Source: Ferrimonas sp.
Lineage (GTDB): Bacteria; Pseudomonadota; Gammaproteobacteria; Enterobacterales; Shewanellaceae
Direction: 5' to 3'
DNA: 64,000 nt
NCBI RefSeq assembly: GCF_048263965.1
Contig: NZ_JBLXDO010000017.1
Location: 7,223 to 71,222 of the forward strand
In this document: piece by piece, positions 382 to 5,128 of the stretch
How positions within the stretch are numbered: the first letter of the stretch is position 1
How the letters are laid out: every line of letters begins with the position of its first letter
Made by a program: the position numbers and the translations under genes
Notes under the pieces: generated by a model
Seen by the model: the letters and a program-made list of their open reading frames with translations, nothing else
What the model was told of the DNA's origin: nothing
Database searches by the model: none

Positions 382-1134
382 ATGCGCTGTCCCCACACCG
401 ATGCCCTCAGGGTGAAATGTCAGGCCGTCCTCGATGTGACTGAAGGGATGATCGATCAGCAGGGGTTGATCTCATTCAAGCTCTCCCAGGTTGCCAAGGA
501 GGCGGAGATTGCCAACTCTACCTTCTATAAGCTGTTTGAGAGCAAAGAGGACCTGCTGGTGTGCTGCTTCATGCGTAACGCCACTTGCAATCACTTCGAT
601 GATTTCGAAGCCCTGCATCCGGGAATGTCTGCCATAGAGCGGGTTCTGTTGCCCATCATCTTTACCTTCGAGGCTACCTACTTCTCTCCCAGTTTCAACC
701 TGGTTCGCCAGGTGGCAGTCAACAGTCGGGTGTGGCGCCTGGCCAGTGCCGACAAGGCCAAGGCGTTTGAGAATCGCATTAACCTCTATTGGGAGAGGAT
801 CACCGGATACCTGAAGCAGGCGGTAACCGAGGGGGAACTGGTGGCGTCTGATGACGAGGTGAGGGAGCTGGCACAGGCGATCACCTTCTACCTGAGCGGT
901 GCCCTGTCCGCCTATGAGTGCCGCCTCATTGGTAAGGAGTTCCTGCAGGAGAAGCGTCAGACTCTGTTCCGGCAGCTGCAGAATGTATTCAAGCCTTACG
1001 GCTGGCGTGAGCCTCTGACCCTGGCACTGTTTGAGCGGGTGGGGGTTAGAGTACATATGTACTACCAGGCCAATCGCCGTGACTTCAACAGCTGTGCCCG
1101 CTGCATGGCGATGCAGGAGAAGCTGGGCGGCTGA
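382..1134 (+). CDS. TetR/AcrR family transcriptional regulator
   Basis: N-terminal HTH (FKLSQVAKEAEIANSTFYKLFESKEDLL); 250 aa; C-terminal CARC. Confidence 0.8.
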   Translation: MRCPHTDALRVKCQAVLDVTEGMIDQQGLISFKLSQVAKEAEIANSTFYKLFESKEDLLVCCFMRNATCNHFDDFEALHPGMSAIERVLLPIIFTFEATYFSPSFNLVRQVAVNSRVWRLASADKAKAFENRINLYWERITGYLKQAVTEGELVASDDEVRELAQAITFYLSGALSAYECRLIGKEFLQEKRQTLFRQLQNVFKPYGWREPLTLALFERVGVRVHMYYQANRRDFNSCARCMAMQEKLGG

Positions 1135-1155: not shown

Positions 1156-1218
1156 GGCTCCCCCAGGGGAGCCTTTCCTTTATATAAGGGAAACAAAAAA
1201 GGCTCCCTTGCGGGAGCC
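1156..1218. terminator. Back-to-back intrinsic terminators between convergent genes
   Basis: GGCTCCCC-CA-GGGGAGCC followed by TTT (+ strand); AAAAAA-GGCTCCC-TTGC-GGGAGCC (- strand). Confidence 0.75.
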
Positions 1219-1253
1219 TGGGCGTGTGTCAGGAGTTGAGTGTCACTTCAGCC

Positions 1254-2381
1254 TTAGAAGTAGTAGCCGAAGTTGATGTTGATGCGCTGGTCCCAGCCGT
1301 CGCCCGCTTCCTTCAGGCCAACGTGGTCATCCATCTCGGTGGAGAAGGTCATGTTCTTGCCCATCACGAAATCCGCCATGATGTACAGCGGGCCCGCAGC
1401 GATGGCAGCACCGGTGACGTTCTGGTAGCTGTTATCAAAGCTGTCGTCGTCGGTGTCAGGCGTCATCACACCGAAGTCGTTGTAGATCTTCACGCTGCCC
1501 CAGTCTGTGGGGATGGTCTTGGCGATGTTGAAGTTGTAGGCCTGGCCCTTAGAGGCGATCTCGTACTGCCAGCTCACCACGGAAACGCCGATCTTATTGG
1601 GATCCACCCCCTCCTGATTCTTGGCATCGTACTCATACTGCATCGCTTGCAGTTGGATGTTCCAACCGTTGAAGCTGGAGTCCAGGTGAGCGGCAATGGC
1701 GTAGCGGTCGCCATTGTCTTCGGTCTTGCTGTTGTAGATCTGACCCCACTGAACCGAACCACCGATGGTGGTGCTGCCGCCGTCGTGCTCCACGGTGTAG
1801 GTTTGGCGCAGGTTCAGCTGGTTGGTCTCTTCGTTGTAGTACTCGGTACCGTTGATGGTGCCGGTGTACAGGTCGGTGGCGTAACGCTTGTTTTCAGATG
1901 CGCCGTATTCGGGGTTCTTGTAGAAACCCAGGTCGGTGTGCCACTTGCCGTTGTCGAAAGTGGCCTTGATGCCCACATCATGGTCATCTTCGAAGCCCAG
2001 GTAGTAGGGGATACCAAACCACCAGCTGTTGGAGATGAAATCGCGGTTACCGAAGGGCACCTTGTTGATGCCGAACTGGATCTGCCACTCCGGGGTAGCG
2101 TCGTAGTAGCCGTAGCCGTACTTGATGTAGTGGGTGCCGGAGGTGAAGCGGTACTCGGAGGAGAGGCCCCAGTCGCCGTGCTTGCCGTTGAACTTAATGG
2201 CGGCCATGTCGAAGGTCAGATCGCCAGCCTTGTCTTTGGAGCTGTCGCTGTAGAATTTCAGGCCGTAGTTCACCCGTACGGCACCGCCGACACTGATGCC
2301 GTCTTCCTGGGCCTGGGCCACTGGGTTGAGCAGGGCGAAGATGGCACCTGCCACCAGGGAAAGCTTGGTTGCGTGTTTCAT
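1254..2381 (-). CDS. Outer-membrane beta-barrel / porin-like protein
   Basis: Start reassigned to MKHATKLSLVAGAIFALLNPVAQA (Sec signal); alternating beta-strand pattern rich in Y/F/W/G/D/N; C-terminal BAM-type signature ININFGYYF. Confidence 0.75.
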   Translation of the reverse strand: MKHATKLSLVAGAIFALLNPVAQAQEDGISVGGAVRVNYGLKFYSDSSKDKAGDLTFDMAAIKFNGKHGDWGLSSEYRFTSGTHYIKYGYGYYDATPEWQIQFGINKVPFGNRDFISNSWWFGIPYYLGFEDDHDVGIKATFDNGKWHTDLGFYKNPEYGASENKRYATDLYTGTINGTEYYNEETNQLNLRQTYTVEHDGGSTTIGGSVQWGQIYNSKTEDNGDRYAIAAHLDSSFNGWNIQLQAMQYEYDAKNQEGVDPNKIGVSVVSWQYEIASKGQAYNFNIAKTIPTDWGSVKIYNDFGVMTPDTDDDSFDNSYQNVTGAAIAAGPLYIMADFVMGKNMTFSTEMDDHVGLKEAGDGWDQRININFGYYF

Positions 2382-2440
2382 TGTATTCACTGCCTTAATC
2401 CGAGCCGGCAAGGCCGGCTCAAAAATCTGATACGTCGTTT

Positions 2441-3178
2441 TTATTTTTCGAACTTGTCTTGGTTGGTGCCGTATGGACCCAGGTCCATGGCGGCCTTGCG
2501 CAGGGCGTCAACACGGTCGAACGCCTCTTCCGCTACGCGCAGGTTTTTCACATCCTTACGCCAGTAGTACTTGAAGCCGTCGAAGTGGGCGTTCTTGGGG
2601 TACCAGTACATCACGCCGAAACCCTGCTCATCGGTGATGGGGGTGTTGTGGATGGTGTTGCCGGGGATGTAGAAGTACATGCCCTTCTCCATCCACTTGT
2701 ACTGGCCGTCGGCCAGGGTGCGGGCGCGGCCGGATACGGCGTAGTAGCACTCAGGCTGGCCGTGGAAGTGGGGGGCGTGGTCAGACTTGCCGCCGTTGGT
2801 GATGCCGATAACCACAGGGGCGTCGGACAGCTCTTTCCACAGGTAGCCTACGGGCGCGTTCTCCAGCTTGCAGTCCTTGGCTTCCATGATGTTGCCGTCG
2901 TCATCCATGGTCTTGCAGAAGCGCTGGTCCTTGGCGATGGAGTCGTTGGACTTGATGGTGTTGAAGTCTACACGGCCCGCTTCCCAGTCGGCGATGTACT
3001 GTTCCACCAGAGGGTCGCGGCACTGCTCAGGCATGGTGGCCTGAGGAGAGTAGGGGGTGGAATCATAAGGGATGGCGGTAGCCTGCTGGTAGGGCAGTTG
3101 GGCGTGTTCCAGGTGGGCGTTGGCCATAACGGAACCGGAGCACAGGGCGCCGAGGATCAGTGCGAGTTTCTTCATCAT
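2441..3178 (-). CDS. Secreted cupin-domain protein, candidate DddK/DddW-like DMSP lyase
   Basis: Start MMKKLALILGALCSGSVMANA after RBS AGGAAGAG; cupin motif 1 HFHGQPECYYAVSG, motif 2 GMYFYIPGNTIH; cupin call is firm, lyase call is inference. Confidence 0.7.
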   Translation of the reverse strand: MMKKLALILGALCSGSVMANAHLEHAQLPYQQATAIPYDSTPYSPQATMPEQCRDPLVEQYIADWEAGRVDFNTIKSNDSIAKDQRFCKTMDDDGNIMEAKDCKLENAPVGYLWKELSDAPVVIGITNGGKSDHAPHFHGQPECYYAVSGRARTLADGQYKWMEKGMYFYIPGNTIHNTPITDEQGFGVMYWYPKNAHFDGFKYYWRKDVKNLRVAEEAFDRVDALRKAAMDLGPYGTNQDKFEK

Positions 3179-3243: not shown

Positions 3244-3609
3244 TTACATCTCGTCGAACCAGGTGCGGTGGCACTCGGAGCAGACCGGAGCCTTGGTCTG
3301 GTGTTCGGCGTGACAGGCCAGGCAGCTGGCGCCCTGGTTGAAATGGATGCTCTTGTGAGGATTGGCCTCCTCGAGCACCAGGTCACGGGTCACCTCGATG
3401 TCGTTGATGTTGCCGTGGCAGTCGATGCAGGCGCTGTCGTCCACATACTTGCGAGCAGAGCCCTCGTGGCAGGTTTTGCAGCCATCTTCATAAATAAACT
3501 GGTGATTGGTGCGGCCCTTTATGGCGCCCTTTACCTTGACCAGATCACCGGCCTGAGCGGTATTGCACAGGGCCAGCATCAGCCCCAGGGAGATCAGTAC
3601 TCGTTTCAT
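3244..3609 (-). CDS. Small periplasmic tetraheme cytochrome c (cytochrome c3 / ArdB-like)
   Basis: Signal peptide and four CxxCH motifs: CKTCH, CIDCH, CLACH, CSECH; RBS AGGAG. Confidence 0.92.
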   Translation of the reverse strand: MKRVLISLGLMLALCNTAQAGDLVKVKGAIKGRTNHQFIYEDGCKTCHEGSARKYVDDSACIDCHGNINDIEVTRDLVLEEANPHKSIHFNQGASCLACHAEHQTKAPVCSECHRTWFDEM

Positions 3610-3619
3610 GGCGTTCTCC

Positions 3620-5128
3620 TCAGGCGTCCGCTTTGATGGTCTTGGGCACGATCATGCCCATGGTCAGGCACTCCAGGCAGGAGGTGGAGCTCAGGCGGGC
3701 GTGGCCATGCACCCCGCCGGTTACCTCGCCAGCACCGTACAGCTTCTTGATGGGCTTCATGGTGCGGCAATCCAGCACCCGGCCACCCATGTCGGTTTTC
3801 AGGCCGCCCATGCAGTAGTGCACCTTGGGCCAGATGCGGCTGACCACGAAGGGTGGCTTGAGCTCGACGGCAGTGTCCATCTTGCGACCGAAGTCGGGAT
3901 CGGTGCGCTTGCTTACCTGGGCGTTCCATTGAGCCAGGGTCTGTTTCAGCTCGGTCAGGGGCAGGTTAAACTTCTCTGCCAGTTGCTCCAGGCTGTCGAC
4001 CTTCCAGGCCATTTCGTCCCGCAGGGCGCGGACCACACGGTCATCATCCGGGTGGTCGTTGTAGTTGAACAGCACCAGAGGGTAGGCGGGAGTACCGTCC
4101 TGATGGCGGTTTTTCATGATGGCGGTGGAGCAGGTCAGGCGGTCGGCGCGCTCGTTCATGTAACGTTTGCCGCTGAGTACGCTGACGGAGATCCCTTCAT
4201 GCCAGCCGATGGAGAGCAGGGCGTTGGACCAGCCAAAGCCGCCTTCGTCCGGAGAGCCCCAGTGGCCGGTCTGGATCATGTTCAGGTGCACGGGCAGGGC
4301 TCCGTGGGCCATGGCGGCCAGCATCACTTCGCCGGTGGCACCCAGGTGGTTGGTGCCGTCCAGGGTGGGATCCAGTGACGGGTCCACGGCGGCGCGCAGG
4401 GCCATGTTACGGGTAAAGCCGCCGGAGGCGCAGATCACCGCCTTGTTGGCCTTGATGCGGATCAGAGAGCCCGTCTTCTGGTCAGGGAAGCGATAGCCGC
4501 GGCGAACCATCACACCTTCGACCTCACCCTGGCTATTGAGGATGAAATCTTCGATGTAGTGTTGCAGGCGATACTCGACCCCCTCTTTTTTGCCGGCTTC
4601 ATACAGCTTGGTGGTGATGTCACCGCCGGTGCCGTGCTTGGTGCGGATGGCGCGGGCCTTATTGTGGCCGCCCACCTGGATGTTGAAGTTCTTGCGGAAC
4701 TCGACGCCAGCATCGACGCACATGTGGTAGGCGCCCAGGGCGTGTTCGGCGATCTGGGTCAGCATCGCCTCATCGGCCATGCCGCGGCCGGAGATCATCT
4801 GGTCCTTCACCAACTCGGCTGGGCTGTCATCGTCGATGCCCTGAGACAGCTGGATGGGGTTCTTGGGCACGGCGAACCAGCCGCCGTTGATGGCGGAGTT
4901 GCCGCCAATCACCTGCATCTTTTCCAGGACCAGGACCTTGCCCAGACCCTGACGTTTGGCATTCAGTGCGCTGGAGAGGCCGGCGAAGCCGGAACCGATC
5001 ACCAGCACATCAACCTCTTCATCCCATTTGGTGGCGGGGGCGGCGGTTGCCACCGCGGGCAATCCTGCTGCCAGGCCACCGGCGGCCAGACCGGCACCGA
5101 GTCGCAGGAATGAACGTCTGTTCGACAT
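3620..5128 (-). CDS. Tat-exported flavocytochrome c flavin subunit (fumarate-reductase superfamily enoate reductase; ArdA / methacrylate reductase-like)
   Basis: Tat motif SNRRSFLRLG; FAD-binding VIGSGFAGL; GGNSAINGG; VHYCMGG; GGVHGHARL; no fused heme domain. Confidence 0.88.
   Translation of the reverse strand: MSNRRSFLRLGAGLAAGGLAAGLPAVATAAPATKWDEEVDVLVIGSGFAGLSSALNAKRQGLGKVLVLEKMQVIGGNSAINGGWFAVPKNPIQLSQGIDDDSPAELVKDQMISGRGMADEAMLTQIAEHALGAYHMCVDAGVEFRKNFNIQVGGHNKARAIRTKHGTGGDITTKLYEAGKKEGVEYRLQHYIEDFILNSQGEVEGVMVRRGYRFPDQKTGSLIRIKANKAVICASGGFTRNMALRAAVDPSLDPTLDGTNHLGATGEVMLAAMAHGALPVHLNMIQTGHWGSPDEGGFGWSNALLSIGWHEGISVSVLSGKRYMNERADRLTCSTAIMKNRHQDGTPAYPLVLFNYNDHPDDDRVVRALRDEMAWKVDSLEQLAEKFNLPLTELKQTLAQWNAQVSKRTDPDFGRKMDTAVELKPPFVVSRIWPKVHYCMGGLKTDMGGRVLDCRTMKPIKKLYGAGEVTGGVHGHARLSSTSCLECLTMGMIVPKTIKADA

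Follow-up and report, generated by a model that had tools for sequence, protein, structure and literature searches.

Few small organic solutes of the sea are as abundant as dimethylsulfoniopropionate (DMSP), glycine betaine, choline and carnitine, which drive the release of dimethyl sulfide and trimethylamine. The inner-membrane importers for these solutes (BCCT, OpuA/ProU) and the lyases that act on them are well studied; to our knowledge, their passage across the outer membrane is simply assumed to occur via general porins. Here we describe a porin gene, P0001, that closes a putative lyase-reductase operon in a 64,000-nucleotide (nt) stretch of a Ferrimonas sp. genome (the window; contig NZ_JBLXDO010000017.1, positions 7,223 to 71,222). 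We propose, with a probability of about 0.55, that P0001 is an outer-membrane channel supplying an onium-carboxylate, a DMSP-like precursor, to the lyase and reductase encoded upstream of it. This and the other functional readings given below draw on gene neighborhood, conservation and predicted fold.

Among the closest described systems is ArdAB-DddY of Shewanella woodyi (bioRxiv 10.1101/2024.02.11.579808). Like the operon studied here, it combines a split flavoprotein, exported by twin-arginine translocation (Tat), with a Sec-exported tetraheme cytochrome and a periplasmic cupin lyase, and a TetR-type regulator is encoded nearby. Acrylate and methacrylate induce the ard genes, and the cells reduce exogenous acrylate; in ArdA, a Gly and a Tyr replace the His and Thr that act as ligands of the fumarate C1-carboxylate (bioRxiv 10.1101/2024.02.11.579808). 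The same paper mentions no porin, nor do the DddY superfamily preprint and the methacrylate reductase paper. In the literature that we searched, neither an outer-membrane channel for DMSP nor an onium-specific porin is described, in agreement with a first, sequence-only reading of the locus that knew of no characterized DMSP channel; the DMSP papers that we searched do not mention the P0001 family. Genes for a diffusion channel and for the machinery that consumes its solute are known to lie side by side, as seen for LamB/ScrY, ChiP and DcaP.

The porin gene and its operon

The operon and its flanking signals comprise the following features (numbering of the window).

382..1134, plus strand: TetR-family regulator gene, convergent with the operon (TetR_N match)
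1200..1219, minus strand: intrinsic terminator closing the operon, 34 nt past the porin stop, with a GC-rich stem of 8 bp and then a T run
1254..2381, minus strand: porin coding sequence P0001, 375 amino acids (aa), ATG at 2381, stop included; last cistron of the operon
1983..2060, minus strand: loop L3, residues 108-133, candidate eyelet (AlphaFold2 model and family conservation)
2310..2381, minus strand: Sec signal peptide, residues 1-24, cleavage after AQA (direct sequence reading)
2402..2420, minus strand: intercistronic GC-rich hairpin of 8-11 bp without a U tract, between the cupin stop and the porin ribosome-binding site
2441..3178, minus strand: DddK-like cupin, 245 aa from the MMKK start, Sec signal (Cupin_2 match)
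3244..3609, minus strand: tetraheme cytochrome c, 121 aa, Sec signal, four CxxCH motifs (Cytochrom_c3_2 match)
3620..5128, minus strand: Tat-exported flavin adenine dinucleotide (FAD) flavoprotein of the flavocytochrome c (fumarate/urocanate/acrylate reductase) family (TIGR01813, 522 bits)

The order on the minus strand is thus Tat flavoprotein, tetraheme cytochrome c, cupin and porin, with intergenic gaps of 10, 65 and 59 nt; the cupin ends with its stop at 2441 and the porin starts with its ATG at 2381. A terminator scan from the flavoprotein through the porin found none between these genes. Since the gaps are short and the first terminator follows only after the porin, the porin is probably co-transcribed with the three genes upstream. 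The sequence-only reading had placed the porin at the end of the reductase operon, about 60 bp past the cupin stop and with no terminator in between, and the open reading frame, the barrel model, the operon order and the terminator behind the porin all bear this out. The hairpin at 2402-2420 folds at -19.3 kcal/mol (z -2.7) and was not called by the terminator scan. Six Ferrimonas species share the hairpin, with differences in both arms of its stem, and it may serve as an mRNA processing, stability or attenuation element rather than as a canonical terminator. A search upstream of the operon for a CRP-type site or an operator palindrome revealed nothing above chance. Almost all Ferrimonas and Shewanella loci have a TetR homolog beside the module. 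The locus itself is 99% identical to that of F. futtsuensis.

P0001 carries the marks of an exported outer-membrane barrel, namely a Sec-type signal ending in AQA followed by QEDG, and a C-terminal YYF as found in such barrels. No family was matched in Pfam (E<=0.01) or in NCBIfam, and neither P0001 (phmmer) nor a 90-sequence family profile (hmmsearch) found a porin in the PDB at E<=1. Matches in the ESM Atlas were exclusively to clusters named 'outer membrane beta barrel protein'. An AlphaFold2 run without an alignment reached a predicted local distance difference test (pLDDT) score of only 34 and was replaced by a run with the 90-sequence alignment, which gave a monomer model with a pLDDT of 94, a predicted template modeling (pTM) score of 0.88 and a barrel of ~16 strands. 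The strand listing of this model holds 19 segments of at least 3 residues, some of which are splits of one strand; residues 1-23 are of low confidence and lie outside the barrel. In VIA-align, the model reached Z ~25 over 280-306 residues to many solved porins. Because of this match and the pLDDT of 94, P0001 is, as modeled, a classical 16-stranded porin, and it belongs to a family without a name, a Pfam model or a solved member. Homologs are numerous: a word-indexed search recovered 319 at E<=1e-3 (best 90% identical), and the family comprises 443 cluster representatives at E<=1e-3 among 1.8 billion proteins.

Structural comparison placed P0001 equally close to two kinds of known porins, with Z scores of 25.2-25.4 to OprO/OprP against 24.5-25.1 to OmpF/OmpC/OmpK36, which is a tie. 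OprP/OprO of Pseudomonas aeruginosa (PF07396; PDB 2O4V, 4RJW), which are specific for phosphate and pyrophosphate, share the 16-stranded fold, with 304 residues aligned at 15-16% identity. Some close P0001 homologs are annotated as OprO/OprP family, and 14 of the 90 family members match PF07396 weakly (best E 4e-7). However, P0001 itself has no PF07396 match, the family profile finds no OprP/OprO sequence in the PDB, and the partners of the P0001 family are onium transporters and lyase-reductase modules rather than phosphate uptake genes. The family is at best a distant relative of OprO/OprP. The general trimeric porins OmpF/OmpC/OmpK36 resemble P0001 in barrel size, in a long L3 with a PFG-type motif and an acidic patch, and in the predicted basic residues on the barrel wall (root-mean-square deviation 2.7-3.3 A). 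They share only 9-12% identity with it and are housekeeping genes outside catabolic or respiratory operons, whereas the P0001 family is linked again and again to specific uptake or enzyme systems. Another match in structure is DcaP (PDB 6EUS; Z 24.4), but there is no sequence relation and P0001 does not match PF19577.

We next turn to the enzymes encoded with the porin. The cupin homologs are 243-248 aa long, and the best PDB match of their family profile is DddK (E 1.5e-9). The residues aligned to the DddK motifs, a Trp, HxHxxxExY, a His and a Tyr, are invariant in the cupin family. The active-site positions of DddK (W26, H56, H58, E62, Y64, H96 and Y122) each align with one of these invariant residues. 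We rejected an assignment of the cupin as DddY, given its 245 aa compared to ~400 aa, the lack of a DddY match in the PDB and DddK as best match. The flavoprotein has the Tat motif RRSFLR and keeps the counterparts of Fcc3 R402, H504 and R545, among them the proton-donor Arg and the carboxylate-binding His/Arg, while the H365 position is a Gly. Its signature is IQTGHW/GFGW, compared to IQSGPW/GFGY in the DddY-linked (ArdA-type) flavoproteins and in those of a second module described below. The protein is only ~43% identical to the DddY-linked flavoproteins, and with Gly/Trp instead of the Gly/Tyr of ArdA it was rejected as an ArdA orthologue. A comparison with the residues of the Geobacter methacrylate reductase gave no match. 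Further differences to ArdAB-DddY are the lyase, a DddK-like cupin of 245 aa instead of a 400-aa DddY, and the location of the DddY of this genome, which is encoded on another contig (C2). Since the cupin is DddK-like and the flavoprotein signature differs, the operon appears from its sequence to encode a module like, but not identical to, the DMSP/acrylate system. Its precursor may be DMSP, dimethylsulfoxonium propionate (DMSOP) or another onium-propionate.

Partner genes across the porin family

A scan of species-representative genomes for the P0001 locus returned 44 loci. The Ferrimonas order is flavoprotein-cytochrome-cupin-porin. In Shewanella, a TetR gene precedes flavoprotein-cytochrome-porin-(DcaP-like barrel)-cupin, and this first module often stands in tandem with a second one, in which another TetR gene precedes flavoprotein2-cytochrome2-cupin2-DUF3299-porin2. 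The additional barrel between porin and cupin, with weak DcaP/Porin_2 matches, occurs in most Shewanella module-1 loci (for example L013:11298-12362 and L020:11240-12322) and is missing from Ferrimonas module 1. A quick IQ-TREE version of the porin tree united 56 Ferrimonas and Shewanella porins in one clade (Shimodaira-Hasegawa-like approximate likelihood ratio test 99), and 53 of the 56 adjoin a split flavoprotein and cytochrome module. In two Shewanella genomes of the MR-1 group, only one family member was detected (E<=1e-10), and it is the porin of this module. Because this sole member sits there, the P0001 family is not the housekeeping porin of these genomes.

The Ferrimonas genome itself encodes eight porin paralogs. 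All eight adjoin either a periplasmic reductase module or a BCCT transporter, and four lie in lyase-flavocytochrome modules. Their neighborhoods are as follows.

Paralog 1 (P0001): flavoprotein, cytochrome and DddK-like cupin
Paralog 2: flavoprotein2-cytochrome2-cupin2-DUF3299-porin, plus TetR
Paralog 3: at the end of contig C2; cytochrome, a DddY of 419 aa, then the porin (61% identical to P0001)
Paralog 4: porin, sigma-54 activator, aromatic amino-acid ammonia-lyase with signal peptide, flavoprotein, cytochrome (read on F. kyonanensis L041)
Paralog 5: Tat molybdopterin oxidoreductase, Fe-S protein, chaperone, cytochrome b561, then the porin
Paralog 6: cytochrome c3, Tat-signal flavoprotein of the old yellow enzyme (OYE) family, then the porin
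Paralog 7: porin directly upstream of a CaiT equivalog (NF002887, 890 bits; cut-off 541)
Paralog 8: porin abutting a BCCT transporter

Two of the four BCCT genes of the genome are immediate neighbors of a porin paralog. The 419-aa DddY beside paralog 3 matches solved DddY structures (PDB 5XKX, 5Y4K) at E 3e-72. This DddY is found in 12 of 401 genomes of the order, and six of the seven sampled Shewanella genomes with dddY show the order flavoprotein-cytochrome-DddY-porin. ArdAB-DddY clusters end with a porin of the P0001 family both in this genome and in these six Shewanella. Among the DddY-linked Shewanella porins, one is 76% and two are 64-67% identical to P0001, while three are instead 55-59% identical to the CaiT-linked paralog. 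As three resemble P0001 and three the CaiT-linked paralog, two porin subtypes have been joined to the characterized DMSP-lyase/acrylate-reductase cluster. The porin would be an overlooked fourth component of the recently described ArdAB-DddY acrylate respiration.

On a wider scale, sampling recovered the P0001 family from 10 of 75 genera of the order and from 23 of 321 genera of the class (the class count includes the own genus). Fourteen order-level loci with 28-37% porin identity have no flavocytochrome nearby. Six of these, which represent three families, have a BCCT gene immediately downstream of the porin and in the same direction. The gaps in the order-level porin/BCCT pairs (L053-L058) are ~10-55 nt; class-level pairs (L094, L095, L098, L105, L106, L108, L109) vary in order and orientation. 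In the class sample of 20 loci, a BCCT gene is found within 3 kb of the porin in nine and adjacent to it in seven, and the immediate neighbor is a gene for an OpuAC betaine-binding protein in one locus and for a PF13416 binding protein in three. With ~four BCCT genes per 4-Mb genome, we roughly estimate the chance of a porin-BCCT adjacency at well below 1%. The neighborhoods of homologs, which the sequence-only reading had named as the place where its proposal could fail, thus revealed a link to onium compounds, with BCCT genes, a CaiT equivalog, OpuAC and a bona fide DddY adjoining the porins.

Pore residues and competing explanations

The sequence-only reading had described an acidic and aromatic-rich barrel and argued that such residues would suit a cationic substrate. 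The description is correct: mature P0001 has an isoelectric point (pI) of 4.5, a net charge of -22 and 16% F/W/Y. However, the medians of 90 family members are similar (pI 4.9, aromatic content 15%), and porins in general are alike in this respect. Because the values are typical of the whole family, they carry little information, and we rejected composition as a sign of cation selectivity. The argument is further weakened by a conserved cluster of basic residues, R36, R78, R192, R366, K87 and K139, which strand phase predicts to point toward the lumen. Structure prediction, proposed earlier as a check, returned the expected barrel of ~16 strands together with a mixed lumen charge, with 14 acidic and 10 basic lumen-facing residues by strand phase, which is a rough proxy. 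Among the predicted lumen-facing residues, four arginines (Arg36, Arg78, Arg192 and Arg366) are invariant.

Loop L3 is a 26-residue non-strand stretch between strands 5 and 6 of the model, and by analogy to the porin fold it is a candidate for an eyelet inside the barrel lumen. Its motif consists of VPFG, an aromatic run, YY and G-[LF]-EDD-YD, so that it ends in an EDD acidic patch. Members linked to BCCT genes and members linked to reductases alike conserve the L3 motif as well as R36, R78, R166, R192, R366, H232, D132, D302 and D337. The aromatic L3, the EDD patch and the Arg cluster might together form an eyelet suited to onium-carboxylates.

The simplest reading of these data is that the family provides outer-membrane passage for small onium and onium-carboxylate solutes, and that copies were placed in the lyase-reductase operons of Shewanella and Ferrimonas. 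In the case of P0001, the solute that most likely enters the periplasm would be DMSP or a similar propionate with a sulfonium or ammonium group. The cupin would cleave the onium-carboxylate there and release an enoate, which the flavoprotein, as an enoate reductase, would reduce as terminal electron acceptor. The same pore could admit exogenous enoate and let the reduced acid out. From the earlier proposal of a DMSP or onium channel, the onium link holds at the level of the family, while specificity of this copy for DMSP is not supported, given the DddK-like cupin, the flavoprotein signature that is not that of ArdA, and the separate paralog that the true DddY cluster of the genome has.

A broader version, which we put forward only tentatively, would see in the P0001 family unrecognized onium-selective channels of Gammaproteobacteria by which DMSP, glycine betaine, choline and carnitine cross the outer membrane, a step that has been missing so far. 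The L3 eyelet, the EDD patch and the Arg cluster would then recognize trimethylammonium and dimethylsulfonium carboxylates, and the channels would have been recruited repeatedly to the cleave-and-respire modules of Shewanella and Ferrimonas. In any case, a porin family of many marine bacteria that travels with BCCT, CaiT and OpuAC genes and with DMSP-lyase/acrylate-reductase clusters is a concrete and clonable candidate for the outer-membrane step.

Several observations weigh against an onium channel. The porins within the 56-member clade are not sorted by lyase or module type, the module-1 porin of a genome is often sister to its module-2 porin, and near-identical porins also occur with modules that have an exported aromatic amino-acid ammonia-lyase. 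A fairly unselective pore fits this pattern as well as a shared substrate class does. Furthermore, paralogs also accompany a molybdoenzyme and an OYE reductase. In the predicted lumen, basic residues are about as numerous as acidic ones and the Arg cluster is conserved, so that a preference for carboxylates or other anions is conceivable. Finally, the loci were chosen for their similarity to the query and a single genus contributes many of them, hence the counts given above are not independent.

The main rival is an unselective general-diffusion porin that was duplicated into respiratory and uptake operons in order to raise permeability on induction. Besides the tied Z scores of the model, the presence of paralogs beside the molybdoenzyme and OYE loci and the interleaving of porins in the tree, it would explain why the eyelet residues barely vary between modules with different lyases. 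A precedent is OmpS38/Omp35 (SO_3896), a Shewanella porin of similar size that is tied to periplasmic acceptor respiration. It is a major porin of S. oneidensis, and its loss slows respiration of several soluble acceptors, which is a general effect (PMC4585640). Unlike P0001, OmpS38 is a housekeeping and highly abundant porin. On indirect grounds it appears to belong to a different family, because the one P0001 family member detected in two MR-1-group genomes lies in the reductase cluster. Yet neighboring BCCT, CaiT, OpuAC and DddY genes turn up again and again in many gammaproteobacterial families, which is not expected of a pore without specificity. The genome moreover keeps eight paralogs, and the single, module-borne member in the MR-1 group does not fit a general housekeeping role. 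On balance, we consider a purely unselective pore unlikely, although it is the explanation that survives best beside an onium channel.

A lesser rival holds that P0001 conducts the anionic enoate and its product, an acrylate-type acid inward and a propionate-type acid outward, rather than the onium precursor. The predicted lumen-facing Arg/Lys cluster would suit such a function, and the anion-specific OprO/OprP are among the top folds, level with the OmpF/OmpC type. A carboxylate-bearing acceptor is also common to all module types, and in S. woodyi the ard genes respond to acrylate and methacrylate and exogenous acrylate is reduced (bioRxiv 10.1101/2024.02.11.579808). Yet the partners of the distant homologs import cationic or zwitterionic onium compounds (BCCT, CaiT, OpuAC) and are not carboxylate transporters, the family profile matches no OprP/OprO sequence, and the Shewanella module-1 clusters carry the DcaP-like barrel, which could serve the acid. 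An anion channel thus seems improbable to us.

A role outside transport, such as docking periplasmic enzymes at the outer membrane, or a mere passenger gene is very improbable, as the linkage survives a change of gene order (after the cupin in Ferrimonas, after the cytochrome in Shewanella), the eyelet-type loop and the charged lumen residues are conserved, and a barrel of 16 strands is smaller than the MtrB-type sheaths of 26 strands, which enclose a cytochrome.

Related modules and minor observations

At the paralog-3 cluster, the DddY and tetraheme cytochrome genes are located at the very end of contig C2 (G000:C2:279204-280970; L073:11202-12971), and an ArdA-type flavoprotein is absent from the assembly. 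Presumably, the flavoprotein gene of this cluster lies past the contig end and was lost in the contig break.

The module of paralog 4 has a signal-peptide-bearing aromatic amino-acid ammonia-lyase (PF00221) encoded directly upstream of the Tat flavoprotein and the tetraheme cytochrome (L041:13297-17303; G000:C1:205000-222000, L075). It was matched in the own genome by tblastn, where the lyase is 91% identical to the F. kyonanensis copy. The locus looks like a periplasmic module that would deaminate an amino acid and respire the resulting enoate.

The OYE locus of paralog 6 lies just outside the window (G000:C17:81391-84224; L077:8389-11224) and consists of cytochrome c3, an OYE with an RR motif, the porin and a LysR gene. 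A periplasmic OYE ene-reductase fed by a cytochrome would be unusual.

Besides the DUF3299 protein that is encoded between cupin2 and the porin in module 2, another one is found near a BCCT-linked paralog, next to a MacB-type ABC permease (L013:5203-5658; L074:9016-9492; L079:9868-10368). In Shewanella cutis (L023:5125-8426), a porin nearly identical to those of module 1 occurs without flavocytochrome genes and is flanked by genes for a multiheme cytochrome and a molybdoenzyme and by a phage-type integrase, which suggests a rearrangement of the cluster.

The flavoproteins fall into signature classes, with IQSGPW/GFGY in the ArdA type and module 2, IQTGHW/GFGW in module 1 and IQLGPW/GFGT in the ammonia-lyase module (window 3620-5128; L074, L080-L086). 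These classes suggest different enoate substrates. Judged from its gene content, one Ferrimonas genome would carry at least four parallel periplasmic modules of a lyase plus an enoate reductase, each with its own pore.

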